This document shows, piece by piece, positions 21,102-53,588 of a stretch of 64,000 bases of DNA. This DNA comes from Malacoraja senta (taxonomy: Eukaryota). The DNA is taken from NCBI GenBank assembly GCA_038087875.1, contig CM075988.1:21950001-22014000 (forward strand), read 5' to 3'. The position numbers and the translations under genes were made by a program. Within the stretch, counting starts at the first letter, position 1. The number at the start of each line of letters is the position of its first letter. The notes below the pieces were generated by a model, which saw only the letters and a program-made list of their open reading frames with translations, had not been told where the DNA came from and did no database searches.

Positions 21102-21171
21102 ATGGCTTTAATTCTATCTGCACTCATCCTGGGCTTATTTCTTCAATGTGCACCAACCTATTCCCAGTCAA
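21102..21171 (+). CDS. Exon 1 of predicted GPI-anchored mucin-like gene: signal peptide MALILSALILGLFLQCAPTYSQS
   Basis: ATG in good context (gaaATGG), hydrophobic core followed by small polar residues, then consensus donor A|GTAAGT at 21172 (phase 1). Confidence 0.8.
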
Positions 21172-23193: not shown

Positions 23194-24392
23194 ATTAGTG
23201 TGTGTGGGGGGGGTTAGTGTGTGTGGGGGTTAGTGTGTGTGGGGGTTAGTGTGTGTGGGGGTTAGTGTGTGGGGGGGGTTAGTGTGTGTGGGGTTAGTGT
23301 GTGGGGGGTTAGTGTGTGTGGGGTTAGTGTGTGTGGGGTTAGTGTGTGTGTGGGGGTAGTGTGTGTGGGGGGGTAGTGTGTGTGGGGGGGTAGTGTGTGT
23401 GGGGGGGTAGTGTGTGTGGGGGGTTAGTGTGTGGGGGGTTAGTGTGTGTGGGGTTAGTGTGTGTGGGGGGTTAGTGTGGGGGGTTAGTGTGTGTGTGGGG
23501 GTAGTGTGTGTGGGGGGGTAGTGTGTGTGGGGTTAGTGTGTGTGGGGGGTTAGTGTGGGGGGGTAGTGTGTGTGGGGTTAGTGTGTGTGGGGGGTTAGTG
23601 TGGGGGGGGTAGTGTGTGTGGGGGGTTAGTGTGTGTGGGGGGGTAGTGTGTGTGGGGGGGTAGTGTGTGTGGGGGGGTAGTGTGTGTGGGGGGTTAGTGT
23701 GTGTGGGGTTAGTGTGTGTGGGGGGTTAGTGTGGGGGGGTAGTGTGTGTGGGGTTAGTGTGTGTGGGGGGGTAGTGTGGGGGGGGGGTAGTCTGTGTGTG
23801 GGGGGTTAGTGTGGGGGTGGTAGTGTGTGTGGGGTTAGTCTGTGTGGGGGGGTAGTTTGTGGCGGGTTAGTGTGTGTGTGGGGGGGGGGTTAGTGTGTGG
23901 GGTTAGTGTGTGTGTGTGTGGGGGGGGGTAGTGTGTGTGTGTGTGTGGGGGGGGTAGTGTGTGTGTTGGGGGGGGTAGTGTGTGTGGGGGGGTTAGTGTG
24001 TGTGGGGGGGTTAGTGTGTGTGGGGGGGGGTTAGTGTGTGTGGGGGGGGGGTAGTGTGTGTGGGGGGGGGTAGTGTGTGTGTTGGGGGGTTAGTGTGTGT
24101 GTGTGTGTGTGGGGGGGGTAGTGTGTGTGGGGGGGTAGTGTGTGTGGGGGGGTTAGTGTGTGTGTGTGTGTGTGTTTGTGGGGAGGGGGTAGTGTGTGTG
24201 GGGGGGGGGGTAGTGTGTGTGTTGGGGGGTTAGTGTGTGTGTGTGTGTGTGTGTGGGGGGGAGGGGGGTAGTGTGTGTGTTGGGGGGTTAGTGTGTGTGT
24301 GTGTGTGTGGGGGGGAGGGGGGTAGTGTGTGTGGGGGGGTTAGTGTGTGTGTGTGTGGGGGGGGGGGGGTAGTGTGTGTGGGGGGGTTAGTG
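23194..24392 (+). repeat. G/T-rich minisatellite (GTGTGTG(G)nT(T)A)n
   Basis: ~1.2 kb of variable units with G-runs of 4-10 nt. Confidence 0.95.
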
Positions 24393-24742
24393 TCCAGATA
24401 CGACCTTGGTAAGGCCATCAAAAAGGCCAAAAGGGACTTCTGCTCCAAGCTGGAGGATGAGACGGATGTTCGGCAACTGTGGCGGGGCTTGAATGCAATC
24501 ACCTCTTACAAGGTGAAATCAGCAAGCAGCTCAAACAACAGCGAAGCATCACTCCCTGACGAGTCAATGCGTTTTACGCACGCTTTGATAGGGAGAACAC
24601 TGATGTGTCTTCCCAAGCCCCCATTCGCCGTGATGGTATTTCTGTCACAGTCACAGAGGCCGACGTCAGAAGATCCTTCAGGGGGGTGAACCCTCGGAAA
24701 GCGCCTGGACCTGATGGTATACCCGGTCGTGTTCTAAAAAGG
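24393..24742 (+). mobile_element. Rex1/Babar-like LINE ORF2 internal fragment
   Basis: YDLGKAIKKAKRDF..KLE and [25 protein letters not shown]. Confidence 0.75.
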
Positions 24743-24908
<166 letters not shown>

Positions 24909-25879
24909 ATATGTAATATCGGCCAAAACGGTATAGGTAGCGCTAAATTTTTTGCAGAACCCTACTCAGCTTTTTCCCTTCGTTGATCTAATCAACTTCC
25001 TTCAGATTTGATGTTATATTTCACAGGTTATTGACATTTAAAGGTTTAAAAAAAGCCAACTTTGAGAATGATAACTAACTGTGAGAGGGAGACATTTCTG
25101 GCAGCTTCCAGTGATATCACAATGGCATCTCACAGTCATCCAATCACAATGGGATCTCATTTACACAAGCTGTCGTGAACATTCCGACAACCGAAAATGA
25201 CATCACAATGTGATCTCTGCTGCCAAGTCACAAGCTATGAGAGTGTTTTTACATTGTTGTAAGGAGAGGGACGTAGTGGGGGAGATTTAAAAGTTTAAAA
25301 GTGACTTTAAAAGTTGGATTTCTTCAAATCTGCACTGGCAGTTAGGCAGTTATGATGTCACAATGCCCTACCGGCTACAATGTTGCTATCCCAGAACACT
25401 GAGTCCTTCACAGCAAATGTCCTTCAGGGGAAGAATCTGCCAGTCTAACCCAGCACAGCAAAGTTTAATAATTAGATTTGGATAACAAAAGATGGCCTTG
25501 TCGGTGGCACCTACATCACATTAAATCTTAGTGCAATTGCATTTTTTTAAAAGTTTAAAATGAGGTAGAATGCAAAAATCAGCCGACCTGCACAGTTGGG
25601 GACTATGGGTAAGTGGTGGAATACTACATTGGGGGAATGGGTTGCATTGGAGGAACGGGTGAGTGGTGGAATCTTATGAAGGGGAATGGGTTGCGTTGGG
25701 GGACCAGGCCTCCCGTGGGGGCTATGGGTGAGTGGTGGAATCTTAATTTTGTGGAACGAGTTGTGTTGGGGACCAGGCCTCCCATGGGGGCAATGGGTCA
25801 GTGGTCGAATGTTGCGTTGGGCTAATGGGTTACGTTGGGGGAATGGGCGAGTGGTGGAAACGGGTTGCGTTGGGGTAAC

Positions 25880-26895
25880 GGGTGAGTGGTGGATTATTGC
25901 ATTGGGGAACGGGGCCCAACGGGTCCCACTTGGTCTCGTATATATTACTAATACTCTCATCTTGTTTCTATATTTGTTTGATTGTTTGTTTGTGTGCCAG
26001 TATGTACCTATATTTATGCAAAAATGGTACATAATAGCGCTACAATTTTGGCCCACCTTACACACCATTGTCCTCCAATGTCAATGAAACATTTTTTGCT
26101 TCAGATTGATGTTATATTTTACGTTATTTACGTTTAAAACTTAAAAAATTAAAATAGCGCCCCCACTTGCCGTCTTTACTTGACTGGCATCACAAAGGAC
26201 ACCCAACAGGTCCTCAGCCCCGCCTGCGCAGTTGGAGGCTTCCCCATTTTCAGATCACCATATTTTTTCTTCGCGTCTACTTGCCTGCCCTCACAACATG
26301 GACCCAACAGCTCCACGGGTAAGTTTCCTATTTTACCAACGCTTCCACTGGTCCTTTCTGCCCCCCTGGCCCTGGGCTGGGGACGGAGCTGGTGCGGGGT
26401 CCGGGGGCAGGGAGAGGCCATGCCGGGGACCCAGGACCTGGGTGCTGCCGCTAGGAAACTTACCCATGGAGCCGTTGGGTCCATGTTGTGAGGGCAGGCA
26501 ACTAGACGCGAGGAAAAAAGATGGCGATCTGAAAATGGGGAAGCCTCCAACTGCGCAGGCGCGGCTGAGGACCCGTTGGGTGCCCTTTGTGACGCCAGTC
26601 AAGTAAAGATGGCAAGTGGGGACGCTGTTTTAATTTTTTAAGTTTTAAACGTAAATAACTTGTAAAATATAATATCAATCTGAAGGAAACTAGTTGCATT
26701 TACATCGGAGGACAATGTTTAGTAAGGTGGGCCAAAACTTGTAGCACAATCGTGTACCGTTTTTGCGCAAATATAGGTACAATCCGGCACACAATCAAAC
26801 AAATATAGAAACAAGATGAGAGTTTTAATAATATACTAGACCAAGGGGACCCGTTGGACCCCGTTCCTCCAACACAATATTCCACCACTCACCCT
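25880..26895. repeat. Large imperfect inverted repeat formed by opposed Helitron-like copies
   Basis: Arm ~25880-26330 is the reverse complement of ~26452-26895, with a 121-bp spacer; mirrored ORFs 26232-26606(+) and 26176-26550(-). Confidence 0.9.
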
Positions 26896-27358
26896 TAGCC
26901 TCCAACTGCGCATGGTGGGCTGACTGCTATCCTTCTTCCTACCCCTATTCTCCTCCATTCCCCATCGCCCAGCACTCCCTCCCCCTCCTCCCACCCCTCA
27001 CCTCTCCCTCCTTCTCCTTTCCCCATACTCAGTCACTCCCTCCCTCCATAACTGCTCTCCCCTCCCTACCACCGTCCTCTCCCTCTAACCCCCCTGCTCC
27101 CCCACTGCTCAACTGGCCCTCCTCACCTCCCCCCACTGCATTCCTCTCCCTCAATCCCCCAGTCCCTATCTCCCCCACTCCCTCTATCCTCCACTCTTCT
27201 CCCTCTATCCTTTCCCTCTCCTACCCCCTATCCCACCCCTCACTCTGCTTCCACACGTCTATATATATATATATATATAGAGCAAGGTAAAAGCAATTCT
27301 ATATTTTAAAAGTATTCAAAGTAAACTGTTTATGTGACAATGTGTTGTCTTTACACAG

Positions 27359-27391
27359 CGACCATGGACCCTACTCCCATCACTTCAATGG
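27359..27391 (+). CDS. Microexon 2 (33 nt): TTMDPTPITSM
   Basis: tgtctttacacAG acceptor, G|GTAAGA donor, phase 1-1. Confidence 0.72.
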
Positions 27392-28260
27392 GTAAGATAA
27401 CAGCAATTGATAGTACTTTCATGCTATTGTATGTGTTTTTCTGTAGCCTCTGCTCATTGCTAGTAATTCCTGAATAGTACAGGTGTCATGACATATGGGG
27501 AGAAGGCAGGGGAAAGGGGTTAGTGGGGAGAGATAGATCAGCCATGATTAAATGGCAGAGTAGACTTGATGGGCCAAATGGCCTAATTCTGCTCCTATCA
27601 CTAATGAACTTATGAACGTATAATTTTCCTCCCTTTTCCATCCCATCTCACATGGGTCAGAGGAACGTTACAACAGACAATAGACAAAAGGTGCAGGAGT
27701 AAGCCATTTTGCCCTTCGAGCCAGCACCACCATTCAATGTGATCAATGTTACAGCTGACTTAGACAACAAATCTCTTAAAAAGTGACACAATTGTCCTGG
27801 ACAAAGGGGCCCACACAGTCACTACAATGGAGGTCAGTTTGGGCAAGATCTTCAGACTTTACTTTACTTCAGAGATACAGCACGGAAACAGACCCTTCGG
27901 CCTGCTGAGTCCATGCCGACCAGCGATCACTCCATATACTAACACTATACTACACACAAGAGACAATTTACAATTTACAATTTTTACCAAAGCCAGTTAT
28001 CCTACAATCCTTTCATGGATCTGTGGTTCAATAAGCAGCATGTTTGCTTGTTCAATTCACACCGACACAATTCCAACCTAGCGGACAAATCACTGGATGT
28101 ATGTACATTTATAAATCTGCAACTGAGGGACTCTTCAGGTTGAATTTCTTGTCATGTTTTATATATATACACATATATATAGGGCAAGGTAAAAGCAATT
28201 CTATATTTAAAATGCATTCAAAGTAAAATGTTTATGTGACAATGTGTTGTCTTTACACAG

Positions 28261-28302
28261 AGACCATTATGACCATGGACACTCCTTCCAATACTCCATT
28301 GG
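28261..28302 (+). CDS. Microexon 3 (42 nt): ETIMTMDTPSNTPL
   Basis: Same acceptor and donor, phase 1-1. Confidence 0.72.
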
Positions 28303-29059
28303 GTAAGATCACAGCAAGTGCTAGTACTTTCATGCCATTATATGTGTTTTTCCGTAGCCTCTGCTCATTGCTACACTCCAAGAATTGCTGTTACAAACAG
28401 TAAGAAATGCTTGTCTTCAGTCTGAACAATGGTCTCGACCCGAAACCTCACGCATTCATTCTCTCCTAAGATGCTGCCTGTCCCATTGAATTACTCCAGC
28501 TTTTTGTGGCTATTATCGGTATAAACAATTAATTCCTACACATTGTAGTGTAGTACAAGTTCTCAAATATTCCTAAAAATTCATTCAGTGATTATGGTCA
28601 ATTTGATGTTGTTTTGTTATTCAATTACTTCATTTATTATAATTTGTTTAGCATTTCTGTATGGACAGATGGACATTCCATCCACAGATGCTGCCTGTCC
28701 CGCTGAGTTTCTCCAGCACTTTGTTTCTTCAGAATCCTATTCCATTCTGAAATTAAAGCAGGTGCATATTCGACCAATGGAGTAATAATATAAATTCCAC
28801 TAAATAGATTCAGAAATGCCAGTGAATTCCAGCAATATATTATTACTGGAGTTTCTCAACTATTGAGTGGAATTTAGTAATAGCCAAGCCAATCAAATCA
28901 AGTTTCTAATATTATTATTCTAATATTATTGAACTGCAAAACTTACCCAAACAGGTCAGTTTTATGTTAACATTCAACAATGGATGGGCAGTGTTCAATT
29001 GTCGTATATATTGACAAACAAAACAGTGAAATTCTTACTTGCAAGTTCACGTTCAAAAG

Positions 29060-29500
29060 TTATAAGAGTAGAATTAGGCCATTCGGCCCATCGAGTCATA
29101 CAATAATGGCCGATCTATGCTTGCTAATCCCATTTCCTGCCTTCTCCCCATAACCCTCTACATCCGTTCTAATCAAGAAGTTGTCTATCTCCGTCTTAAA
29201 AACATCCACTGACTTGGCCTCCACAACCCTCTGTGGCAATGAGTTCCACAGATTAACTACCCTCTGACTAAAGAAGTTCCTCCTCACATCCTTTCTAAAA
29301 GAGTGCCCTCTAATTCTGAGGTTACAACCTCTGGTCCTAGGCTCCCCCACCAATGGAAACATCCTTTCCACATCCACTCTATCTGTGCCTTTCATTATTC
29401 TGTAAGTTTCAATGTCCCCCCTCAACCTTCGAAACTCCAGCGACTAGAGGCCCAGTGCTGGCAAACGCTCATCATATGCTAACCCACTCATTCCTGGAAT
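29060..29500 (-). mobile_element. CR1 3' fragment carried in the repeat unit (also ~31350-31790, ~33835-34280, ~36570-36980, ~40600-41005)
   Basis: RGDIETYRIMKG.DRVD..RNFFSQRVVNLWNSLP, the CR1 ORF2 C-terminus. Confidence 0.85.
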
Positions 29501-30551
29501 CCTTCATGCAACAGCCTGTTAGGCTGTAAATACAATGCACATTGATAATAAGTAATGAACATTAACATCAATAAATTAATAACCCCAATACTAGTACAAA
29601 AACAGACCATCCATACTTCATAATTGAGATTAGTGTTGTGTAGCATTCAAGAACTTGAATGATGTTGAAGAATAGTTTCTTCCCAATGTATAAAGAACAT
29701 TTCCAAGATATATATTGGAATAATTTTTTTCCTACATATCTCTGTTATTTTTTAGAGAAAAACGTGACAATAAGGTCCCTGGATCCCTCCTGTTTATTCC
29801 CTGAACAGAGGCCCCAGGCAGTAATTCCAGATTAGTGGAGGTGTTATGAATTATGGGGAGAAGGCAGGAGAAAGGGGTTAGTGGGGAGAGATAGATCAGC
29901 CATGATTAAATGGCAGAGTAGACTTGATGGTCCAAAAGGCCTAATTCTGCTCCTATCACTTATGAACTTATGAACGTATAATTGTCCTTCCTTTTCCATC
30001 CCATCTCACATGGGTCAGAGGAACGTTACAGCTGACTTAGACAACAAATCTCTTAAAAAGTGACACAATTGTCCTGGCCACTTGATCCTGGACAAAGGGG
30101 CCAACACAGTCACTACAATGGAGGTCAGTTTGGGCAAGATCTTCAGACTTTACTTTACTTCAGATATGCAGCACGGAAACAGACCCTTCGGCCTGCTGAG
30201 TCCATGCCGACCAGCGATCACTCCATATACTAACACTATCCTACACACAAGGGACAATTTACAATTTACCATTTTTACCAAAGCCAGTTATCCTACAATC
30301 CTTTCATGGATCTGTGGTTCAATAAGCAGCATGTTTGCTTGTTCAATTCACACCGACACAATTCCAACCTAGCGGACAAATCACTGGATGTATGTACATT
30401 TATAAATCTGCAACTGAGGGACTCTTCAGGTTGAATTTCTTGTCATGTTTTATATATATACACATATATATAGGGCAAGGTAAAAGCAATTCTATATTTA
30501 AAATGCATTCAAAGTAAAATGTTTATGTGACAATGTGTTGTCTTTACACAG

Positions 30552-30593
30552 AGACCACTATGACCATGGACACTCCTTCCAATATTCCATTGG
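30552..30593 (+). CDS. Microexon 4 (42 nt): ETTMTMDTPSNIPL
   Basis: Same acceptor and donor, phase 1-1. Confidence 0.72.
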
Positions 30594-33032
30594 GTAAGAT
30601 CGCAGCAAGTGCTAGTACTTTCATGCCATTATATGTGTTTTTCTGTAGCCTCTGCTCATTGCTACACTCCAAGAATTGCTGTTACAAACAGTAAGAAATG
30701 CTTGCCTTCAGTCTGAAAAAGGGTCTCGACCCGAAACGTCACGCATTCCTTCTCTCCAGAGATGCTGCCTGTCCCATTGAATTACTCCAGCTTTTTGTGG
30801 CTATTATCGGTATAAATAATTAATTCCTACACATTATAGTGTAGTACAAGTTCTCAAATATTCCTAAAAATTCATTCAGTGATTATGGTCAATTTGATGT
30901 TGTTTTGTTATTCAATTAGTTCATTTATTATAATTTGTTTTGCATTTCTGTATGGACAGATGGACATTCCATCCACAGATGCTGCCTGTCCCGCTGAGTT
31001 TCTCCAGCACTTTGTTTCTTCAGAATCCTATTCCATTCTGAAATTAAAGCAGGAGCATATTCGACCAATGGAGTAATAATATAAGTTCCACTAAATAGAT
31101 TCAGAAATGCCAGGGAATTCCAGCAATATATTATTACTGGAGTTTCTCAACTATTGAGTGGAATTTAGCAATAGCCAAGCCCTAATCAAATCAAGTTTCT
31201 AATATTATTATTCTAATATTATTGAACTGCAAAACTTACCCAAACAGGTCAGTTTTATGTTAACATTCAACAATGGATGGGCAGTGTTCAATTGTCGTAT
31301 ATATTGACAAACAAAACAGTGAAACTCTTACTTGCAAGTTCACGTTCAAAAGTTATAAGAGTAGAATTAGGCCATTCGGCCCATCGAGTCATTCAATAAT
31401 GGCCAATCTATGCTTGCTAATCCCATTTCCTGCCTTCTCCCCATAACCCTCTACATCCGTTCTAATCAAGAATTTGTCTATCTCCGTCTTAAAAACATCC
31501 ACTGACTTGGCCTCCACAACCCTCTGTGTCAATGAGTTCCACAGATTAACTACCCTCTGACTAAAGAAGTTCCTCCTCACATCCTTTCTAAAAGAGTGCC
31601 CTCTAATTCTGAGGTTACAACCTCTGGTCCTAGGCTCCCCCACCAATGGAAACATCCTTTCCACATCCACTCTATCTATGCTTTTCATTATTCTGTAAGT
31701 TTCAATGTCCCCCCTCAACCTTCGAAACTCCAGCGACTAGAGGCCCAGTGCTGTCAAATGCTCATCATATGCTAACCCACTCATTCCTGGAATCATTCAT
31801 GCAGCAGCCTGTTAGGCTGTAAATACAATGCACATTGATAATAAATAATGAACATTAACATCTATAAATTAATAACCCCAATACTAGTACAAAAACAGAC
31901 CATCCATACTTCATAATTGAGATTAGTGTTGTGTAGCATTCAAGAACTTGAATGATGTTGAAGAATAGTTTCTTCCTAATGTATAAAGAACATTTCCAAG
32001 ATATACTGTATACTGGAATAATTTTTTTACTACATATCTCTGTTATTTTTGAGAGAAAAACGTGACAATAAGGTCCCTGGATCCCTCCTGTTTATTCACT
32101 GAACAGAGGCCCCAGGCAGTAATTCCAGATTAGTGGAGGTGTCATGAATTATGGGGAGAAGGCAGGAGAAAGGGGTTAGTTGGGAGAGATAGATCAGCCA
32201 TGATTAAATGGCAGAGTAGACTTGATGGTCCAAAAGGCCTAATTCTGCTCCTATCACTTATGAACTTATGAACGTATAATTGTCCTTCCTTTTCCATCCC
32301 ATCTCACATGGGTCAGAGGAACGTTACAGCTGACTTAGACAACAAATCTCTTAAAAAGTGACACAATTGTCCTGGCCACTTGATCCTGGACATAGATTAG
32401 ATTAGATTAGATTAGATTAGATTCCTTTATTTGTCATTCAGACCTTTCGGTCTGAACGAAATTCCGTTGCCTGCAGTCATACATATAATAATAAATAACA
32501 AAACACACAATAAACACAAATTAACATCCACCACAGTGAGTTCACCAGGCACCTCCTCACTGTGATGGAGGCAAAAGTCTTAAAGTCTTAAAGGGGCCCA
32601 CACATTCAGTTTGGGCAAGATCTTCAGACTTTACCTCACTTTAGAGATACAGCACGGAAACAGACCCTTCAGCCTGCTGAGTCCATGCCGACCAGCGATC
32701 ACTCCATATACTAACACTATCCTACACACAAGGGACCATTTACAATTTACAATTTTTACCAAAGCCAGTTATCATGTAATCCTTTCATGGATCTGTGGTT
32801 CAATAAGCAGCATGTTTGCTCGTTCAATTCACACCGACACAATTCCAACCTAGCGGACAAATCACTGGATGTATGTACATTTATAAATCTGCAACTGAGG
32901 GACTCTTCAGGTTGAATTTCTTGTCATGTTTTATATATATACACATATATATAGGGCAAGGTAAAAGCAATTCTATATTTAAAATGCATTCAAAGTAAAA
33001 TGTTTATGTGACAATGTGTTGTCTTTACACAG

Positions 33033-33074
33033 AGACCACCATGACCATGGACACTCCTTCCAATACTCCAATGG
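33033..33074 (+). CDS. Microexon 5 (42 nt): ETTMTMDTPSNTPM
   Basis: Same acceptor and donor, phase 1-1. Confidence 0.72.
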
Positions 33075-34432
33075 GTAAGATCACAGCAAGTGCTAGTACT
33101 TTCATGCCATTATATGTGTTTTTCTGTAGCCTCTGCTCATTGCTACACTCCAAGAATTGCTGTTACAAACAGTAAGAAATGCTTGCCTTCAGTCTGAAAA
33201 AGGGTCTCGACCCGAAACGTCACGCATTCCTTCTCTCCAGAGATACTGCCTGTCCCATTGAATTACTCCAGCTTTTTGTGGCTATTATCGGTATAAACAA
33301 TTAATTCCTACACATTGTAGTGTAGTACAAGTTCTCAAATATTCCTAAAAATTCATGCAGTGATTATGGTCAATTTGATGTTGTTTTGTTATTCAATTAG
33401 TTCATTTATTATAATTTGTTTAGCATTTCTGTATGGACAGATGGACATTCCATCCACAGATGCTGCCTGTCCCCCTGAGTTTCTCCAGCACTTTGTTTCT
33501 TCAGAATCCTATTCCATTCCGAAATTAAAGCAGGTGCATATTCGACCAATGGTGTGATAAATATAAATTCCACTAAATAGATTCAGAAAAGCCAGTGAAT
33601 TCCAGCAATATATTATTACTGGAGTTTCTCAACTATTGAGTGGAATTTAGTAATAGCCAAGCCCTAATCAAATCAAGTTTCTAATATTATTATTCTAATA
33701 TTATTGAACTGCAAAACTTACCCAAACAGGTCAGTTTTATGTTAACATTCAACAATGGATGGGCAGTGTTCAATTATCGTATATATTGACAAACAAAACA
33801 GTGAAATTCTTACTTGCAAGTTCACGTTCAAAAGTTATAAGAGTAGAATTAGGCCATTCGGCCCATCGAGTCATTCAATAATGGCCAATCTATGCTTGCT
33901 AATCCCATTTCCTGCCTTCTCCCCATAACCCTCTACATCCGTTCTAATCAAGAATTTGTCTATCTCCGTCTTAAAAACATCCACTGCCTTGGCCTCCACA
34001 ACCCTCTGTGTCAATGAGTTCCACAGATTAACTACCCTCTGACTAAAGAAGTTCCTCCTCACATCCTTTCTAAAAGAGTGCCCTCTAATTCTGAGGTTAC
34101 AACCTCTGGTCCTAGACTCCCCCACCAATGGAAACATCCTTTCCACATCCACTCTATCTATGCCTTTCATTATTCTGTAAGTTTCAATGTCCCCCCTCAA
34201 CCTTCGAAACTCCAGCGACTAGAGGCCCAGTGCTGTCAAATGCTCATCATATGCTAACCCACTCATTCCTGGAATCATTCATGCAGCAGCCTGTTAGGCT
34301 GTAAATACAATGCACATTGATAATATATAATGAACATTAACATCAATAAATTAATAACCCCAATACTAGTACAAAAACAGACCATCCATACTTCATAATT
34401 GAGATTAGTGTTGTGTAGCATTCAAGAACTTG

Positions 34433-34856
34433 GCTTATACTCGCTAGAATTTAGGAGATTGAGAGGGGATCTTATAGAAACGTACAAAATTCTTATGGGG
34501 TTGGACAGGCTAGATGCAGGAAGATTGTTCCCGATGTTGGGGAAGTCCAGGACAAGGGGTCACAGCTTAAGGATAAGGGGGAAATCCTTTAAGACCGAGA
34601 TGAGGAAAAACGTTTTCACACAGAGAGTGGTGAATCTCTGGAACTCTCTGCCACAGAGGGTAGTTGAGGCCAGTTCATTGGCTATATTTAAGAGGGAGTT
34701 AGATGTGGCCCTTGTGGCTAAAGGGATCAGGGGGTATGGAGAGAAGGCAGGTACGGGATACTGAGTTGGATGATCAGCCATGATCATATTGAATGGCGGT
34801 GCAGGCTCGAAGGGCCGAATGGCCTACTCCTGCACCTATTTTCTATGTATCTATGT
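34433..34856 (+). mobile_element. Young 5'-truncated CR1 insertion
   Basis: Intact C-terminal ORF LGLYSLEFRRLRGDLIE..; absent from sister units; flanked by AACTTG at 34427-34432 and 34857-34862. Confidence 0.9.
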
Positions 34857-35761
34857 AACTTGAATGATGTTGAAGAATAGTTTCTTCCCAATGTATAAAG
34901 AACATTTCCAAGATATACTGTATACTGGAATAATTTTTTTACTACATATCTCCGTTATTTTAGAGTAAAAAACGTGACAATAGGGTCCCTGGATCCGCCC
35001 AGGGTATACCCAGACCAGAGGCCACAGGCAGTAATTCCAGATTAGTGGAGGTGTCATGAGTTATGGGGAGAAGGCAAGAGAAAGGGGTTAGTGGGGAGAG
35101 ATAGATCAGCCATGATTAAATGGCAGAGTAGACTTGATGGGCCAAATGGCCTAATTCTGCTCCTATCCCTTATGAACTTATGAACGTATAATTGTCCTTC
35201 CTTTTCCATCCCATCTCACATGGGTCAGAGGAACGTTACAGCTGACTTAGACAACAAATCTCTTAAAAAGTGACACAATTGTCCTGGCCACTTGATCCTG
35301 GACAAAGGGGCCCACACAGTCACTACAATGGAGGTCAGTTTGGGCAAGATCTTCAGACTTTACTTTACTTCAGATATGCAGCACGGAAACAGACCCTTCA
35401 GCCTGCTGAGTCCATGCCGACCAGCGATCACTCCATATACTAACACTATCCTACACACAAGGGACAATTTACAATTTACCATTTTTACCAAAGCCAGTTA
35501 TCCTACAATCCTTTCATGGATCTGTGGTTCAATAAGCAGCATGTTTGCTTGTTCAATTCACACCGACACAATTCCAACCTAGCGGACAAATCACTGGATG
35601 TATGTACATTTATAAATCGGCAACTGAGGGACTCTTCAGGTTGAATTTCTTGTCATGTTTTATATATATACACATATATATAGGGCAAGGTAAAAGCAAT
35701 TCTATATTTAAAATGCATTCAAAGTAAAATGTTTATGTGACAATGTGTTGTCTTTACACAG

Positions 35762-35803
35762 AGACCACTATGACCATGGACACTCCTTCCAATACTCCAA
35801 TGG
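35762..35803 (+). CDS. Microexon 6 (42 nt): ETTMTMDTPSNTPM
   Basis: Same acceptor and donor, phase 1-1. Confidence 0.72.
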
Positions 35804-37914
35804 GTAAGATCATAGCAAGTGCTAGTACTTTCATTCCATTATATGTATTTTTCTGTAGCCTCTGCTCATTGCTACACTCCAAGAATTGCTGTTACAAACA
35901 GTAAGAAATGCTTGTCTTCAGTCTGAAAAAGGGTCTCGACCCGAAACGTCACGCATTCCTTCTCTCCAGATATACTGCCTGTCCCATTGAATTACTCCAG
36001 CTTTTTGTGGCTATCTTCGGTATAAACAGTTCATTCCTTCACATTGTAGTGTGGTACAAGTTCTCAAATATTCCTGAAAATTCATTCAGTGATTATGGTC
36101 AATTTGATGTTGTTTTGTTATTCAATTACTTCATTTATTATAATTTGTTTAGCATTTCTGTATGGACAGATGGACATTCCATCCACAGATGCTGCCTGTC
36201 CCCCTGAGTTTCTCCAGCACTTTATTTCTTCAGAATCCTATTCCATTCCGAAATTAAAGCAGGTGCATATTCGACCAATAGTGTGATAAATATAAATTCC
36301 ACTAAATAGATTCAGAAATGCCAGTGAATTCCAGCAATATATTATTACTGGAGTTTATCAACTATTGAGTGGAATTTAGTAATAGCCAAGCCCTAATCAA
36401 ATCAAGTTTCTAATATTATTATTCTAATATTATTGAACTGCAAAACTTACCCAAACAGGTCAGTTTTATGTTAACATTCAACAATGGATGGACAGTGTTT
36501 AATTGTCGTATATATTGACAAACAAAACAGTGAAATTCTTACTTGCAAGTTCATGTTCAAAAGTTATAAGAGTCATTCAATAATGGCAGATCTATGCTTC
36601 CTAGTCCCATTTCCTGCCTTCTCACCATAACCCTCTACGCCTGTTCTAATCAAGAATTTGTCTATCTTTGCCTTAGAAACATCCACTGACTTGGCCTCCA
36701 CAACCCTCTGTGGCAATGAGTTGCACAGATTAACTACCCTCAGACTAAAGAAGTTCCTCCTCACATCCTTTCTAAAAGAGTGCCCTCTAATTCTGAGATT
36801 ACAACTTCTGGTCATAAACTCTCCCACCAGTGGAAACATCCTTTCCACATCCACTCTATCTATGCCTTTCATTATTCTGTAAGTTTCAATGTCCCCCCTC
36901 AACCTTCGAAACTCCGCGTGTAGAGGCCCTGTGCTGTCAAACGCTGATCATATTCTAACCCACTCATTCCTGGAATCATTCATGCAGCAGCCTGTTAGGC
37001 TGTAAATACAATACACATTGATAATATATAATGAACATTAACATCAATAAATTAATAACCCCAATACTAGTACAAAAACAGACCATCCATACTTCATAAT
37101 TGAGATTAGTGTTGTATAGCATTCAAGAACTTGAATGATGTTGAAGAATAGCTTCTTCCCAATGTATAAAGAGCATTTCCATGATATATATTGGAATACT
37201 TTTTTTACTACATATCTCTGTTATTTTTGTGAGAAAAACATGACAATAAGGTCTCTGGATCCCTCCTGTTTATCCCCTGAACAGAGGCCCCAGGCAGTAA
37301 TTCCTGATTAGTACGTGTTACGAGTTATGGGGAGAAGGCATGAGAAAGGGGTTATTGGGGAGAGATAGATCAGCCATGATTAAATGGCGGAGTAGACTTG
37401 ATGGGCTAAATGGCCTAATTCTGCTCCTATCACTTATGAACTTATGAACGTATAATTGTCCTTCCTTTTCCATCCCATCTCACATGGGTCAGAGGAACGT
37501 TACAGCTGACTTAGACAACAAATCTCTTGAAGAGTAACACAATTGTCCTGGCCACTTGATCCTGGTCAAAGGGGCCCACACAGTCACTACAATGGAGGTC
37601 AGTTTGGGCAAGATCTTCAGACTTTACTTTAGAGATACAGCACGGAAACAGACCCTTCGGCCTGCTGAGTCCATGCTGACCAGCGATCACTCCATATACT
37701 AACACTATCCTACACACTATGGACAATTTACAATTTTTACCAAAGCCAGTTATCCTACAATCCTTTCATGGATCTGTGGTTCAATAAGCAGCATGTTTGC
37801 TTGTTCAATTCACACCTACACAATTCCAACCTAGCGGACAAATCACAGGATGTATGTACATTAATAAATCTGCAACTGAGGGACTCATCAGGTTGAATTT
37901 CTTGTCATGTTTTA

Positions 37915-37972
<58 letters not shown>

Positions 37973-38037
37973 AAAAGCAATTCTACATTTAAAATGCATT
38001 CAATGTAAAATGTTTATGTGACAATGTCTTTACACAG

Positions 38038-38079
38038 AGACCACTACAACCATGGACACTACTCCCACCGCTGCATTGG
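38038..38079 (+). CDS. Microexon 7 (42 nt): ETTTTMDTTPTAAL
   Basis: tgtctttacacAG acceptor, G|GTAAGA donor, phase 1-1. Confidence 0.72.
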
Positions 38080-38195
38080 GTAAGATCACAGCAAGTGCTA
38101 TAAACCTTCATGCCATTGTATATGTTTTTCTGTAGCCTCTGCTCAATGCTACACTCCAAGAATTGCTGTTTCAAACAGTAAGAAATGCTTGAATT

Positions 38196-38231
38196 CAGTC
38201 TGAAGAAGGGTCTCGACCCGAAACGTCACGC
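38196..38231 (+). ncRNA. Minimal hammerhead-ribozyme motif in a Penelope-type repeat
   Basis: CTGAAGA (38200-38206), stem II GGGTC-TC-GACCC, GAAA, then CGTC; stem I is weak. Confidence 0.5.
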
Positions 38232-39177
38232 ATTCCTTCTCTCCAGAGATGCGGCCTGTCCCATTGAATTACTCCAGCTAGTGTTGTGTAGCATTCAAGA
38301 ACTTGAATGATGTTGAAGAATAGCTTCTGCCCAATGTATAAAGAACATTTCCAGATATACATTGGAATAATTTGTTTACTACATATCTCCGTTATTTTTT
38401 AGAGAAAAACGTGACAATAAGGTCCCCGAATCCCTCCTGTTTATCCTCTGACCAGTGGCCCCAGGCAGTAATTCTTGATTAATAGGGGTGTCATGAGTTA
38501 TGGGAAGAAGGCAGGAGAATAGGGTTAGTGGGGAGAAATAGATCAGCCATGATTGAATGGCAGAGTAGACTTGATGAGCTGAAAGGCCTAATTCTGCTCC
38601 GAACACTAATGAACGTATAATTGTTCTATCTTTTCCATCCCATCTCATATGGGTCAGAGGAACGTTACAGCTGGCTTGGACAACAAATCTCTTAAAAAGT
38701 GACACAATTGTCCTGACCTCTTGACCCTGCACAAAGGGGCCCACACAGTCACTACAATGGAGGTCAGTTTGGGCAAGATCTTCAGACTTTAGAGATACAG
38801 CACGGAAACAGACTCTTCGGCCTGCCGAGTCCACGCCTTCCAGCGATCACTCCATACACTAACACTATCCTACACAATAGGGACCATTTACAATTTTTAC
38901 CAAAGCCAGTTATCCTACAATCCTTTCATGGATCTGTGGTTCAATAAGCAGCATGTTTGCTTGTTCAATTCACACCGACACAATTCCAACCTGGCGGACA
39001 AATCACTGGATGTATGTACATTAATAAATCTGCAACTGAGGGACTCTTCCGGTTGAATTTCTTGTCATGTTTTATATTTATTTATTTATTTATTTATTGG
39101 GCAAGATAAAAGCAATTCTATATTTAAAATGCATTCAAAGTAATATGTTTATGTGACAATGTGTTGTCTTTACACAG

Positions 39178-39234
39178 AGACCACTATGACCATGACCACT
39201 ACGACCATGACCACTAAACCCACCACTACATCGG
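39178..39234 (+). CDS. Microexon 8 (57 nt): ETTMTMTTTTMTTKPTTTS
   Basis: Same acceptor and donor; +15 nt relative to the 42-nt exons keeps frame. Confidence 0.75.
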
Positions 39235-39540
39235 GTAAGATCACAGCAAGTGCTAGTACTTTCATGCCATTATATGTGTTTTTCTGTAGCCTCTGCTCAT
39301 TGCCACACTCCAAGAATTGCTGTTACAAACAGTAAGAAATGCTTGTCTTCAGTCTGAAGAAGGGTCTCGACCAGAAACGTCACGCATTCCTTCTCTCCAG
39401 AGATGCTGCCTGTCCCATTGATTTAATCCAGCTTTTTGTGGCTATCTTCGGTATAAACAGTTAATTCCTACACATTGTAGTGTAGCACAAGTTCTCAAAT
39501 ATTCCTAAAAATTCATTCAGTGATTATGGTCAATTTGATG

Positions 39541-39710
39541 TTCAAGAAGGAACTTCAGATGCTGGAAAATCGAAGGTAGACAAATGTGCTGGAGAAACTC
39601 AGCGGGTGCGGCAGCATCTATGGGGCATCTATAGGCATCTACGTTGCCTATTTCCTTCGCTCCATAGCTGCTGCCGCACCCGTTGAGTTTCTCCAGCACT
39701 TTTGTCTACC
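39541..39710. mobile_element. Palindromic Penelope-type terminal-repeat remnant with 16-bp flanking duplication
   Basis: Self-complementary halves; TATGGTCAATTTGATG at 39525-39540 and 39711-39726. Confidence 0.65.
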
Positions 39711-41192
39711 TATGGTCAATTTGATGAAGTTTTGTTATCCGATTTTATACTTCATTTATTATAACTTCTTTAGCATTTCTGTACCATGGAGCCTGTATGA
39801 TCACAAACTGAATGTTCAGGCTCTTCAGCATGGAAGACGGCGCGCACCCCAGGCGACTATTTGCATGCTGGCCACAGAAGCACATCTACAATCACATATT
39901 ACCATCACTCCGCACTCTTCTCTCGACTGTAAATGCCTCGATTGTGATCATGTATGGTCTTTCCACCGACTGGGTAGCACGCAACAAAAGCTTTTCGCTT
40001 TACCTCAGTACAGGTTACAATAAACTAAATTGAACTAAACTGGAGGCAAGATCCGATAGTTTTGACTATTTCTAATTAGTACAGATTCTTTCCAGCTCCT
40101 GTTACGTAAGTTCCTTTTACCAACAGGGCATACAAAGTAATTTACCCGAGCAAAAAAACAAAGTGCTGGATGAACTCAGTGGGTCAGGCAGCATCTGTGG
40201 AGAAAAGGTGGAAATTCCCTCCACAGATGCTGCCTGTCCCACTGAGTTCCTCCAGCACTTTGTTTCTTCAGAATCCTATTCCATTCTGAAATTAAAGCAG
40301 GTGCATATTCGACCAATAGTGTAATAATATAAATTCCAGTAAATAGATTCACAAATGCCAGTGAATTCCAGCAATATATTATTACGGGAGTTTCTCAACT
40401 ATTCAGTGGAATTTAGTAATAGCCAAGCCGTAATCAAATCAAGTTTGTAATATTATTATTCTAATATTATTGAACTGCAAAACGTACCCAAACAGGTCAG
40501 ATTTATGTTAGCATTCAACAATGGATGGGCAGTGTTTAATGTTCGTATATATTGACAAACAAAACGGTAAAATTCTTACTTGCATCTTCACATTCAAAAG
40601 CTATAGGAGTAGAATTGGGCCATTTGGCCCATTTGTTCCTGCCTTCTCCCCATAACCCTCTACACCCGTTCTAATCAAGAACTTGTCAATCTCTGCCTTA
40701 AAAACATCCACTGACTTGGTCTCCACAACCCTCTGTGGCAATGAGTTCCACATATTAACTACCCTCTGACTAAAGTAGTTCCTCCTCACGTCCTTTCTAT
40801 AAGAGCACCCATTAATTCTGAGGTTACAACCTCTGGTCCTAGACTCTCCCACAAGTGGAAACATCCTTTCCACATCCACTCTATCTATGCCTTTCATTAT
40901 TCTGTAAGTTTCAATGTCCCCCCTCAACCTTCTAAACTCCAGCGACTAGAGGCCCAGTGCTGTCAAACGCTCATCATATGCTAACCCACTCATTCCTGGA
41001 ATCATTCATGCAGCAGCCTGTTAGGCTGTAAATACAATACACATTGATAATAAATAATGAACATAAACATCAATAAATTAATAACCACAATACTAGTACA
41101 GAAACAGACCATCCATACTTCATAATTGAGATTAGTGTTGTGTAGCATTCAAGAACTTGAATGATGTTGTAGGGTAGTTACTTCCCAATGTA

Positions 41193-42209
41193 ACTATGTA
41201 ACTCAGGGGTCTGTGTTGGGTCCACTGTTGTTTGTCATGTACATCAATGATCTGGATGATGGTGTGGAAAATTGGATTAGTAAGTATGCAGATGATACTA
41301 AGATAGGTGGAGAGATTTAGGCCATTTGGAAGAGTGGGCTGAAAGATGGCAGATGGAGTTTAATGCTGATAAATGTGAGGTACTACATCTCGGCAGGACA
41401 AATCAAAATAGGACGTACATGGTAAATGGTAGAGAATTGAGGAATGCAGTTGAACAGAGGGATCTAGGAATAACTGCATAGTTCCCTGAAGGTGGAATCT
41501 CATGTAGATAGGGTGGTAAAGAAAGCTTTTGGGGTGCTGGCCTTTATAAATCAGAGCATTGAATATAGAAGTTGGGATGTAATGTTAAAATTGTACAAGG
41601 CATTGGTGAGGCCAATTCTGGAGTATGGAGTACAATTTTGGTCGCCTAATTATAGGAAGGATGTCAACAAAATAGAGAGAGTACAGAGGAGATTTACTAG
41701 AATGTTGCCTGGGTTTCAGCAACTAAGTTACAGAGAAAGGTTGAACAAGTTAGGTCTTTATTCTTTGGAGCGCAGAAGGTTAAGAGGGGACTTGATAGAG
41801 GTCTTTAAAATTATGAGCGGGTTAGACAGAGTTGACGTGGATAAGCTTTTTCCATTGAGAGTAGGGAAGATTCAAACAAGGGGACATGACTTGAGAATTA
41901 AGGGACAGAAGTTTAGGGGTAACATTAGGGGGAACTTCTTTACTCAGAGAGTGGTAGCTGTGTGGAATGAGCTTCCAGTGGAAGTGGTGGAGGCTGGTTC
42001 GATTTTATCCTTTAAAAATAGATTGGATGGGTATATGGACGGGAAATGAATGGAGGGTTATGGTCTGAGTGCAGGTAGATGGGACTAGGGGGAAGTATTT
42101 TTTTTTTTTTTTAATTTAAAAAAATAAAAAATAAAAAAATGTTCGGCACGGACTTGAAGGGCCGAGATGGCCTGTTTCCGTGCTGTAATGGTTATATGGT
42201 TATATGGTT
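41193..42209 (+). mobile_element. 5'-truncated CR1 insertion
   Basis: QGSVLGP, YADDTK, RPILEYGVQFWSP..; (ATGGTTAT)n tail; AATGTA at 41187-41192 and 42210-42215. Confidence 0.9.
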
Positions 42210-42761
42210 AATGTATAAAGAGCATTTCCATAATATTAATTGGAATAATTTGTTTACTACATATCTCCGTTATTTTTTAGAGAAAAACGTGACAATAAGA
42301 TCCCTGGATCCCTCCTGTTTATTCCCTGAACAGAGGCCCCAGGCAGTAATTCCTGATTAGTACAGGTGTCATGAGTTATGGTGAGAAGGCAGGAGAAAGG
42401 GGTTAGTGGGGAGAGATAGATCAGCCATGATTGAATGGCAGAGAAGACTAGATGGGCCGAATGGCCTAATTCTGCTCCTATAACTTATGAACATGAACAT
42501 ACTGTAAAATTATCCTTCCTTTTCCATCCCATCTCACATGGGTCAGAGGAAAGTTACAGCCGACTTGGACAACAATCTTCTTAAAAAGTGAGGCAATTGT
42601 CCTGGCCACTTGATTATGGACAAAGGGGCCCAAACAGTCACTACAATGGAGGTCAGTTTGGGCAAGATCTTCAGACTTTACTTTACTTTAGAGATACAGC
42701 AGGGAAACAGACCCTTCGGCCTGCTGAATCCGCGCCGACCAGCGATCATTCCATACACTAA

Positions 42762-43070
42762 AGGGGCTGTCCCACGATGCGAGTTTACCCAAGGGCTCTC
42801 CCGAGTTTTAAAAAAAATCAAACTCGTGCTAAGTACGTAGAATGTACGTAGCGGGTACGTCGGAGCTCGTGGACGTCTCGTAGCGGCTCGTAACGCTAAC
42901 GGCAGGTACTCGGGAAACGCGGTAAGTTCGTGAAACTCGTGACGTTTTTTTCAACAGTGTGAAAAATTTCCAACAGTAAAAAAATACTCGTGATGAAGTA
43001 CCACGAGTTTGATTTTTTTTTTTAAACTCGGTAGAGCTCTTGGGTAAATTTGTATCGAGGGACAGGCCCT
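42762..43070. mobile_element. MITE with AGGG(G/C)CTGTCCC terminal inverted repeats
   Basis: AGGGGCTGTCCC..GGGACAGGCCCT interrupts a SINE remnant that is continuous in sister units. Confidence 0.7.
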
Positions 43071-43380
43071 GAACACTATCCTACACACAAGGGACATTTT
43101 ACAATTTACAATTTTTACCAAAGCCAGTTATCCTACAATCCTTTCATGGATCTGTGGTTCAATAAGCAGCATGTTTGCTTGTTCAATACACACCTACACA
43201 ATTGCAACCTAGCGGACAAATCACTGGATGTATGTACATTAATAAATCTGCAACTGAGGGATTCATAAGGTTGAATTTCTTGTTATGTTTATATATATAT
43301 TAGGCAAAGTAAAAGCAATTCTATATTTCAAATGCATTCAAAGTAAAATGTTTATGTGACAATGTGTTGTGTTTATACAG

Positions 43381-43431
43381 CGCCCACTACGCCCACTACG
43401 ACCATGACCACGAAATCCACCACTCCAATGG
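43381..43431 (+). CDS. Microexon 9 (51 nt): APTTPTTTMTTKSTTPM
   Basis: tgtgtttatacAG acceptor, G|GTAAGA donor, phase 1-1. Confidence 0.75.
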
Positions 43432-43654
43432 GTAAGATCACAGGAAGTGCTAGTACTTTCATGCCATTGTATGTGTTTTTCTGTAGCCTCTGCTCATTGC
43501 TACACTCCAAGAATTGCCATGACAAACAGTACGAAATGCTTGTCTTCAGTCTGAAGAAGGGTCTCGACCCGAAACATGTCACCCGTTCCTTCTCTCCAGA
43601 GATGCTGCCTGTCCCGCCGAGTTACTCCAGCGTTTTGTGTCCCTCTTCGGTGTA

Positions 43655-44297
43655 AAGAAAGACAGCGGGGAAACAGGCCCCCCTCACTGACCAGCCATCA
43701 CCCTGTACACAAACACTACCCTGCACACTAGGGACAATTTTACAATTTTTACCGAAGCCAATTAACCTACAAACATGTACGTCTTTTGAGTGTGAGAGGA
43801 AACTGGAGCACCCAGAGAAGACCCACACGGTCACAGGGAGGTGGACACAAAATGCTGGAATAACTCAGAGGCTGAGGCAGCATCTCTGGAGAGAAGGAAT
43901 GGGCGACGTTTCGGGTCGAGACGCTTCTTCAGACTGATGTCTTCAGATAGCCCTTGCCTTCTCGCTCCATCCCCTTCCCTTCCGAGTTCTCCCACTAGTC
44001 CTAGTGTCTCCGACTACATTCTATCTTTGTCCCTCCCCCTCTCCTGACAACAGTCTGAAGAAGGGTCTCGACCCGAAACGTCGCCCATTCCTTCTCTCCA
44101 GAGATGCTGCCTGTCCCGCTGAGTTACTCCAGCATTTTTTATCTACCTTCGATTTAAACCAGCATCTGCATAAGCATCTTTCTTGCACGGTCACAGGGAA
44201 AACGTACAAACTCCGCACAGACAGCTCCCAGAGTCAGGATCGAACCCGCGTCTCTGGCGCTGTGAGGCAGCAACTCTACCGCTGCGCCACCATGCCG
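43655..44297 (-). mobile_element. tRNA-derived SINE interrupted by an inverted Penelope-type repeat pair (~43841-44185)
   Basis: SINE head at ~44230-44296 and body at ~43660-43840; CACGGTCACAGGGA duplicated on both sides of the insert; hammerhead core at 44055(+) and ~43905-43935(-). Confidence 0.65.
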
Positions 44298-44431
44298 CTT
44301 GCTACCCAAGGGACTCCAAGTTTGAATTTACCATCACACTTGCTTATATTGTGCTCAATAGGACAATGCTATATTTGAAATGTATTCAAACTAAAAAAAC
44401 TCATCATGTAATGAATCGTTTTGTCTTTTAG

Positions 44432-44604
44432 TTAATATCAACACGAGGCAATCGATGAGGACCACCATCTACATGAGTACGACAACCAGCACCACGAGAA
44501 GAACAACAGTCACAACTCAAAACTCTGCACCTGGCATTAGCTCCAAGCCACTGCAAGCCTTTGTCTGTATGCTCCTGCTCCTCGTCACTGTGCCAGGGTT
44601 ATAA
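44432..44604 (+). CDS. Terminal exon 10: VNINTRQSMRTTIYMSTTTSTTRRTTVTTQNSAPGISSKPLQAFVCMLLLLVTVPGL* (Thr-rich stalk + GPI-type signal)
   Basis: ttttgtcttttAG acceptor in phase 1; small-residue N-S-A site, polar spacer, hydrophobic tail directly followed by TAA. Confidence 0.8.
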
Positions 44605-44800
44605 ACGGAATAAAAAGCTGCCTCTCAACCAACCTATTCCAAAAACACTTTTCCAACAACCTCCGAGCTTTCCTCTCACAGTACAGCATCAAACATTCTG
44701 TAGGAATGAGTCTTATCAGAACTTGTATTTCCTCAATGATAGAAACTTCACGTTATCGTCCCACTCCCGCTGTCTCGGGTCCCAAACTGAACTCAGCACA

Positions 44801-44806
44801 AATAAA
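44801..44806 (+). promoter_or_regulatory. Candidate polyadenylation signal (alternatives at 44609, 45193, 45886)
   Basis: AATAAA downstream of the stop codon; the site actually used is unknown. Confidence 0.3.
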
Positions 44807-46111
44807 TTCAGGAGACAGCATTCCTATCCTTGTTGGTCTTTGCAACTCTATTACCATTCAGAAACCCATTTATATATGTAAAAAATGCAGTCTTTCCTTA
44901 ATATTCACTCATTCAGTTAGTTTGATCGAATTGGCGTGTTCATGCAATTCGATTACCTCATCCATTATACTTTCTCTGTCGTTTCTATAGCAGGAGCCCT
45001 ATGTTATCATAAACTGAATATTCAACCTCTTCAACATGGAGGCAAAATCAGATAGCCTTCTGCGTTGCTGATCATCTGTGGAAAATGTCGATCTTTTCCA
45101 GTTGCTGTACACGAGGTTGCATGACCAACAAACCATCCGCGGTAATCATAAATCCAAAAGAATCCTCATCATCCTTATCCCTCCACTTTTAAAATAAAAA
45201 ATCTCTATGGCTCATGTTACTTTAAAATATCTATTCCATTCTGAGAGGTAGAGCAAGTATCTACTGGAATAATAGGTCAATAACCTAAACTTCACTAAAT
45301 AATTTTATAAATGTTAAGAAATTCTAATATATATTTTTAATGATCATATTAATTCCTCTGTTTGCAAATTCATAATGACATTATTAACACAGCTGAAGAA
45401 AGGATTGGATTCAGACTTTTGGAATAATCATTCGCTGAACCACTCTGTAATCATGTTAGTTGGTTTGCATCCAATGAATCCTCAGTGAATTTATTCAGCA
45501 TAAAAATACCCTTCGCTTTGCCCCCTGTCTCGAAAGTGCACTGGTTCATACTCACAAACAGCATGGTTCATCCAAAATGGCAACTTTTATTGAATGCTAT
45601 GGTTTCTTTGTTTTTCTTTTATGTCATAATGAACTTTGTTGATGTTTGTTAATGCAGGACATTGCACAATTCTAGACAATCTTAGCATGATACCAAAGGC
45701 AAAAATCTTTTAAGACAAAGACTATGCAATGAAGATTTGCAGAAACAGGTTTGCAGCCTGAAGAATAAATAGGTTATATTGTCCGTTAAGATAAAGCCAT
45801 GGTGGATATCTACTATAATGCATATATTACACAGTTTACCGATGCAATTAAGTGATTTATAAATATTTGTTGAATTCACCTTAATAATAAAAAATTGATC
45901 TTTTGAAAGTCTACAACTTTGTCAATAATATGAGCTTCTTGTCGACACTTGGCCTCTTAAGTGAGTCTGAATCGGGAATATTTTCCATTTTCAACACACA
46001 GTTTTAGCTTTGTTTGAAGAACGGTCCTGATCTGAAACATTACCTACTCATGTCCTCCAGAGATGCTGCCAGACCCCTTGAGTTACTCCAGCACTTTGTG
46101 TCTGCCTTTGT

Positions 46112-53388: not shown

Positions 53389-53588
53389 NNNNNNNNNNNN
53401 NNNNNNNNNNNNNNNNNNNNNNNNNNNNNNNNNNNNNNNNNNNNNNNNNNNNNNNNNNNNNNNNNNNNNNNNNNNNNNNNNNNNNNNNNNNNNNNNNNNN
53501 NNNNNNNNNNNNNNNNNNNNNNNNNNNNNNNNNNNNNNNNNNNNNNNNNNNNNNNNNNNNNNNNNNNNNNNNNNNNNNNNNNNNNNNN
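53389..53588. other. Assembly gap (200 N)
   Basis: Run of N. Confidence 1.

Follow-up and report, generated by a model that had tools for sequence, protein, structure and literature searches.

The predicted gene and its repeat units

The window analysed here is a stretch of 64,000 nucleotides (nt) of Malacoraja senta DNA (assembly GCA_038087875.1, CM075988.1, 21,950,001–22,014,000, + strand), and all coordinates below are window positions. It contains a predicted ten-exon gene of the PLET1-like family. A signal-peptide exon is followed by eight short exons for a Thr-rich stalk, each lying in a tandem repeat unit, and by a terminal exon that ends in a hydrophobic tail of the glycosylphosphatidylinositol (GPI) type. 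The stalk exons probably derive from an old copy of this terminal exon, the remains of which follow their donors. The features, including the 3′ untranslated region (UTR), are as follows.

21102..21171, + strand: exon 1, signal-peptide codons, ending in phase 1 with a GTAAGT donor
21172..27358, + strand: intron 1, 6187 nt, rich in repeats, without an N gap
27359..27391, + strand: stalk exon 1, 33 nt, phase 1-1
28261..28302, + strand: stalk exon 2, 42 nt
30552..30593, + strand: stalk exon 3, 42 nt
33033..33074, + strand: stalk exon 4, 42 nt
35762..35803, + strand: stalk exon 5, 42 nt
38038..38079, + strand: stalk exon 6, 42 nt
39178..39234, + strand: stalk exon 7, 57 nt; its intron holds the most complete last-exon fossil
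43381..43431, + strand: stalk exon 8, 51 nt; the DNA of unit 8 is present in two other organisms as well
44300..44431, + strand: acceptor-side flank of exon 10, homologous to the flank preceding every stalk exon
44432..44604, + strand: coding part of terminal exon 10, with Thr-rich stalk, GPI-type hydrophobic tail and stop
44605..45500, + strand: 3′ UTR, reaching at least 45500 in one relative's RNA-type contig; AATAAA candidates at 45193, 45764 and 45886

All eight stalk exons are 33–57 nt long, in phase 1, and bounded by an AG acceptor and a G/GTAAGA donor. The splice-site pairs are intact in 8/8, and the ten predicted exons join into a single 197-codon frame that is open through to the stop, the stalk exons supplying 351 of the 594 coding nt. 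The signal-peptide region at 21102–21173 is homologous to PLET1-like proteins (tblastn E 1.6e-5 and 2.8e-6), with 17/24 residues identical to the N-terminus of Amblyraja P0003 and 16/21 to that of Rhinoraja P0006. The predicted product comprises the signal peptide, a 148-residue stalk (62 Thr, no Cys) and the hydrophobic tail, and contains no N-x-S/T sequon. It is predicted to be a GPI-anchored mucin of 197 residues, the attachment of the anchor being a prediction as well, and probably serves on the cell surface as an O-glycosylated spacer or an anti-adhesive coat; how long it is likely depends on the number of exons and on their skipping. No Rfam match was found across 20500–47000.

The units are about 1–4 kb long and 85–98% alike across long stretches, and each has private insertions. 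Since they also differ by 2–3% or more over kilobases, they are not haplotype copies. In the unit tree, fair support (91) is obtained for the clade of units 2–5 alone, the remaining clades having 42–78; units 2–5 appear to be the most recent copies, and because support outside this clade is weak, no duplication order is claimed. Unit 1 is truncated on its 5′ side at a TA run near 27270 and is also deleted behind its GPI-signal copy.

The unit-specific insertions at 34425–34859, 41196–42208, 32393–32600 and 42762–43071 comprise pieces like long interspersed nuclear elements (LINEs), a TAGAT-headed element and an element with inverted ends, and are possible markers of duplication order. From the fossil tail to the exon 10 acceptor flank, the last intron (43546–44299) carries only repeats like short interspersed nuclear elements (SINEs), and the other unit parts are absent there; a breakpoint or deletion may lie within these repeats. 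The SINE- and LINE-like class names are our assumption, assigned by look.

Reading in frame past the donors (e.g. 39235–39335) adds a peptide of 18–33 residues (longer in unit 8) that includes a hydrophobic stretch and ends at a stop; intronic AATAAA sites are also present in the units, so that alternative C-termini through donor read-through are possible. The read-through of unit 1 has a tail-like peptide end, which was rejected as a fossil because it is the product of a deletion joint. Elsewhere in the window, two near-identical pairs, 45272–53388/53589–61698 (99.7%) and 8368–10456/15901–17990 (99.9%), adjoin 200-N gaps (53389–53588 and 8168–8367, respectively). They are probably assembly overlaps, the first pair beginning inside the 3′ UTR.

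Decayed copies of exon 10 flanking the stalk exons

Four blocks of the terminal region recur in the units, colinear with exon 10 and its surroundings. The one upstream of the exon is the most widely kept. The acceptor-side flank 44309–44428 aligns to 8/8 units with Smith-Waterman scores of 44–67, all exceeding the shuffle maxima of 33–47 (200 shuffles per unit), in agreement with the homology that the original prediction had proposed; the strings quoted there were all found in place. The GPI-signal codons (44527–44627) align directly behind each donor with one 1-nt and one 6-nt gap. As DNA, they score 29–41 against shuffle maxima of 28–38, and 5/8 units exceed the maximum, as do 5/8 when whole introns are used.

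The GPI-signal copies are clearer as protein. The tail profile used is based on 11 relatives other than skates (sharks, rays and chimaera), each contributing its 36 C-terminal residues; in the fossils, an X was placed at the 1-nt break, whose position came from the DNA alignment. Six of the eight units give 9.8–16.6 bits on this profile, while 17,857 control peptides constructed in the same way from the remainder of the window do not exceed 6.9 bits. The two low scorers are unit 6, which has an extra insertion (4.1 bits), and truncated unit 1 (0.2 bits). Thus, the earlier claim that the GPI codons align to the post-donor intron across a 1-nt gap holds for their placement and for the tail profile, but is weak at the DNA level.

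The other two blocks lie in the 3′ UTR. With repeats stripped, 44954–45040 is identical to 39748–39834 at 67/86 positions (score 63) and 45231–45313 to 40276–40357 at 59/82 (score 42), the shuffle maximum being 32 in both cases. The match previously described between approximately 44950–45330 and the intron at 39745–40380 therefore survives the masking that had been called for and resolves into two blocks. The accompanying wording, "each" unit, was too strong, because both blocks are kept only in units 2, 3, 4, 5 and 7 and are deleted in units 1, 6 and 8. The fossil features are listed below.

39246..39343, + strand: fossil GPI-signal codons and old stop position of unit 7, behind the donor
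27403–27455, 28314–28411, 30605–30707, 33086–33188, 35815–35912, 38106–38144, 43460–43540, + strand: fossil GPI-signal copies of the other units
39715..39834, + strand: fossil 3′ UTR block a; copies at 28570–28661, 30861–30952, 33342–33433 and 36071–36162
40261..40384, + strand: fossil 3′ UTR block b; copies at 28722–28848, 31013–31139, 33494–33621 and 36225–36350

The UTR stretches 44630–44890 and 45350–46000 match none of the eight units. Past 45350, the best candidate (19/23 at 45873–45895/41036–41058, near an AATAAA) scores 26, below the shuffle 95th percentile of 29, and the upstream parts of the units match neither intron 1 nor the downstream DNA. The eight units count as one event rather than eight, because all descend from a single copy.

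Contigs of relatives from 4/24 listed runs, whose DNA or RNA kind was guessed by the tool, were compared with 43100–45500. Both RNA-type runs cover 44511 onward, one of them up to 45500, and have zero depth at 43181–43504 and 44315–44476. Since the 3′ blocks are covered and the unique intron bins are not, the 3′ blocks are UTR in the relatives. Both DNA-type runs, from two other organisms that differ by about 4–6% in the UTR, cover the flanks of unit 8; one contig spans 43351–43559 and bridges the exon 8 donor, at which no change is present among the differences listed. The summed DNA-type contig depth of the two relatives is 9–105 in the terminal unique bins, 66–414 in the unit bins and 1e5–4e7 in the SINE bins. 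The depth on the shared blocks is thus three to five orders of magnitude below that of the SINE bins, which excludes a high-copy repeat.

Family identity, polarity and age

The last exon gave 4 protein matches among 58 candidates (Amblyraja, Leucoraja and Rhinoraja), and all four proteins carry a domain of about 110 residues between the signal peptide and the stalk. With this domain as query, 32 proteins were matched. Of the 20 looked up, five are named placenta-expressed transcript 1 or -like and one is a Reelin-domain protein, the others being unnamed or uncharacterised; their hosts include rays, sharks, chimaera, coelacanth, amphibians and reptiles. Pfam Reeler matches 11 of the 26 aligned family members and misses 15. 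In a structure model of the domain (predicted local distance difference test score 85), the top eight Foldseek matches are the F-spondin reeler (E 3e-6 to 9e-5), and the Atlas value for the Reeler-fold domain of the relatives is 0.90. One relative seems to have two tandem Reeler-like domain copies (P0033, P0024). Mouse Plet1 is described as GPI-anchored with a predicted Reelin-N fold (PMC6492104).

The window copy has the Thr-rich stalk and the homologous GPI-type tail (34.3 bits on the tail profile), but the Reeler domain was not found in the window, either by tblastn or with the domain hidden Markov model over six frames (best E 0.65; a 30-residue piece used as positive control scores E 3e-11). 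The missing module would be in phase 1 on both sides, judging from the proteins of relatives, so that its loss preserves the frame. These observations point to an ancestor that was a PLET1-like protein with a Reeler domain, and the CD24/CD52-like outline of the present product would be derived by domain loss, if the assembly is right. The original prediction had assumed a two-exon CD24/CD52-like ancestor; this part did not stand, the full-length relatives found all having the Reeler-fold domain. Intron 1, in which the module would be expected, contains a 1.2-kb GT-rich satellite at 23200–24393 and repeated elements ending at TA runs. The TA run that truncates the upstream flank of unit 1 is perhaps the 3′ end of the Reeler deletion.

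The polarity of the change can be read from the tail. Skate last exons score 26.7–34.3 bits on the non-skate profile, and because the tail is conserved out to chimaera, the direction is from last exon to intron. The fossil has Phe before the K/Q-P/S-L motif, as do 11/11 non-skate tails, while no skate-type last exon has it (Ser instead). It ends in a Glu-Leu-Leu type, like 8/11 non-skate tails, and the next codon aligns to the stop of exon 10. Since the fossil retains these older states, the intron copy goes back to an earlier version of the last exon. Unit-to-unit distances across alignable flanks are p = 0.008–0.141, whereas unit-to-exon 10 distances are p = 0.37–0.41 (approximately 39%). 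This difference argues for a single old conversion followed by amplification, only the latter being recent, and the unit DNA is also present in the contigs of two other organisms, which differ by about 4–6% from the window in the UTR.

The annotated isoforms of relatives vary in the same two modules, a pattern that agrees with the use of stalk exons as cassettes. Amblyraja isoforms X14–X16 (of at least 16 annotated) have residues 1–142 in common and three different versions of the last exon, each with a whole tail (P0003, P0007, P0008); none of the 88 candidates represented the longer Amblyraja isoforms (339–2000 residues). In five Leucoraja isoforms (P0004, P0009–P0012), an 11-residue stalk piece occurs once or twice and the last exon in either of two versions, and Rhinoraja has two paralogues. 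We infer that the last exon was duplicated repeatedly in the family, some copies staying terminal, and the skate isoforms varying in stalk and last exons are likely to represent an intermediate state. The stalk exon of relatives was equated with the window unit from split-codon logic and the relatives' contigs. Two isoforms of the stingray Hemitrygon (P0045/P0017) differ by a 22-residue Thr-rich stalk repeat, which suggests that a duplicated stalk cassette exists outside skates; the cassette may be as old as batoids.

Proposed origin of the stalk exons and comparison with known systems

We propose, with a probability of roughly 0.78, that the eight exons derive from one old tandem duplication of a PLET1-like last exon, that the upstream copy came to splice at an internal phase-1 GT before the anchor signal, and that the unit was later amplified. 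The homologous blocks show the tandem duplication of a segment that begins 130 nt or more upstream of the acceptor and reaches 750 nt or more into the 3′ UTR. The downstream copy would have provided a new acceptor, so that the upstream copy could be spliced at a GT close to its predicted cleavage site. The anchor signal, stop and UTR behind this GT would thereby have become intron and decayed by a 1-nt loss, an altered stop, and SINE and LINE insertions. With phase 1 at both acceptor and donor and lengths that are multiples of three, such an exon contributes nothing but Thr-rich stalk, and its skipping or copying leaves the reading frame unchanged. As the divergence shows, the 1–4-kb unit later multiplied to eight, units 2–5 recently, presumably via unequal crossing-over eased by the symmetry of the exon, and the exons of the Reeler domain would have been lost, as seen in one assembly. 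Apart from the ancestor and from a gain of the donor after the duplication, this order of events is that of the original prediction: the joint duplication of last exon, acceptor flank and 3′ UTR is borne out by the colinear blocks above shuffles, and the use of an internal phase-1 donor in the upstream copy, with amplification afterwards, is supported by the intact donors and by the unit divergences.

Several observations weigh against this proposal. The GPI fossil by itself is borderline as DNA, and under stricter scoring it gives 19, below the shuffle maximum of 24. Four codons at the donor mismatch exon 10 at the corresponding place. Moreover, 260 nt of the UTR (44630–44890) and most unit-unique DNA have no match in the terminal region, so the limits given for the duplicated segment are lower bounds. 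Among the 15 joints listed for the relatives' RNA-type contigs, none connects a stalk exon to exon 10, and the inclusion of the eight stalk exons in M. senta transcripts is a prediction from splice sites. The exon structures of relatives were deduced from annotated protein isoforms rather than genomes, and the domain loss is seen in a single assembly, in an intron full of repeats.

The nearest alternative retains the duplication and differs only in the origin of the donor: a latent GT, harmless in the ancestral last exon as long as no acceptor lay downstream, would have been activated at once, no GT being gained. The potato RdRp gene provides such a case (PMC4974935), and 3/11 non-skate tails (P0016, P0018, P0022) have Gly-Asn just before the tail, codable as G-GT-AAY, where the fossil reads Gly-Lys. 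Exon 10, however, has no GT today at the place matching the donor, and skates seem to keep duplicated last exons that are still terminal, which indicates that duplication alone does not always convert; a latent donor is a serious contender, with somewhat less than even odds. Less likely, at perhaps one chance in five, is that the array is real but belongs to a decaying paralogue or a mis-assembly, the domain exons being lost in assembly or the gene unexpressed. The satellite in intron 1, the truncation of unit 1 at a TA run, the near-identical duplications beside N gaps and the two Rhinoraja paralogues would fit this explanation. Against it, 21102–45500 contains no N gap, splice sites, frame, signal peptide and tail are all intact, and the divergence and private insertions of the units set them apart from haplotype copies.

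The remaining explanations are far less probable. The window gene consists of signal peptide, stalk and tail only, as a two-exon CD24/CD52-like ancestor would have it, yet the Reeler-fold domain is present in 4/4 last-exon matches and in the vertebrate matches of the domain (among forms of 99 residues or longer), and no Pfam family is matched by the last exon; such an ancestor is quite improbable. Marginally less probable still is the reverse polarity. In that scenario the source was an internal exon; after its duplication, loss of the donor in the final copy would have extended that copy into the intron and created a new GPI tail and UTR. The read-through past each donor demonstrates that introns can mimic a tail. 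Nevertheless, the tail is homologous in sharks, rays and chimaera and is thus far older than the unit, and the fossil fits the tail profile only across a frameshift. An unrelated interspersed repeat as the basis of the shared sequence, the outcome against which the original prediction had asked to be checked, can be practically dismissed. The region is dense in SINE- and LINE-like repeats, but the matches survive repeat stripping, are colinear and absent elsewhere in the window, include family-specific codons, and have low depth in the DNA of relatives.

The product resembles PLET1 and PLET1-like proteins in its homologous signal peptide, Thr-rich stalk and GPI-type tail, and differs from them in lacking the Reeler domain and having an eight-exon stalk; a PLET1-like receptor has apparently been reduced to a pure mucin. 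CD24 and CD52 consist of a signal peptide, a glycosylated unstructured peptide and a GPI anchor without a globular domain, and are encoded by two coding exons with a very short N-glycosylated mature peptide. The window gene shares the outline of signal peptide, unstructured stalk and GPI-type tail, but it has ten predicted exons, a 148-residue stalk and no N-glycan sequon. No CD24/CD52 sequence homology was found, the last exon having no Pfam match at E 1 and its four protein matches being skate PLET1-like, and the likeness is an analogy reached via domain loss.

In schistosome micro-exon genes and in the stalk cassettes of CD45, CD46 and CD55, short symmetric exons are skipped in frame, and the length of an O-glycosylated stalk is varied by splicing. 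A micro-exon gene of the schistosome type has most of its coding sequence in symmetric exons of at most 36 nt; here 8/8 stalk exons are symmetric, but only 1/8 is that short. Unlike those exons, the stalk exons described here (33–57 nt, 351/594 coding nt) have a visible origin in a last exon. It is tempting, though doubtful, to see in skates a full series of exon birth within one family, from duplicated last exons serving as alternative ends through the converted cassette to the eight-exon array without a globular domain. The last would be a new CD24/CD52-like mucin whose length is varied by splicing and whose anchor is perhaps varied too, by way of donor read-through and intronic polyA sites; it would amount to a vertebrate micro-exon gene in the making.

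A literature search, of partial coverage and hence weak as a negative, found no description of a last exon turned into an amplified internal exon, or of PLET1-like genes from skates. Introns gained when a tandem duplication spans an intron-exon boundary are already known, and the mechanism here is a variant of that kind, clear but not unprecedented. As described in PMC4974935, intron gain in the potato RdRp gene occurred by such a duplication, the acceptor being inherited and the donor arising within exon sequence; "imprecise" gains through latent splice sites are reviewed in PMC3443670. As in potato, the duplication includes the acceptor flank and the exon, the acceptor is inherited, the donor comes from the once-exonic upstream copy, and one extra exon results. 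In contrast to what the potato report describes, the duplicated exon here is the last one, so that a GPI signal, a stop and a 3′ UTR became intron; the event is old, the skate exon was amplified eightfold, and the junction, which is RNA-proven in potato, is predicted from DNA. 

Most gained introns and short exons no longer reveal where they came from. In the window, the source of the new intron is identified as a former exon with a copied acceptor flank, and the intron still spells the anchor signal, the stop position and the 3′ UTR. The route from last exon to internal cassette that is thereby made legible leads one to expect similar fossils downstream of the stalk-exon donors in other GPI proteins, and batoid genomes offer a testable series for whether the donor was gained or, as in the potato gene, latent.

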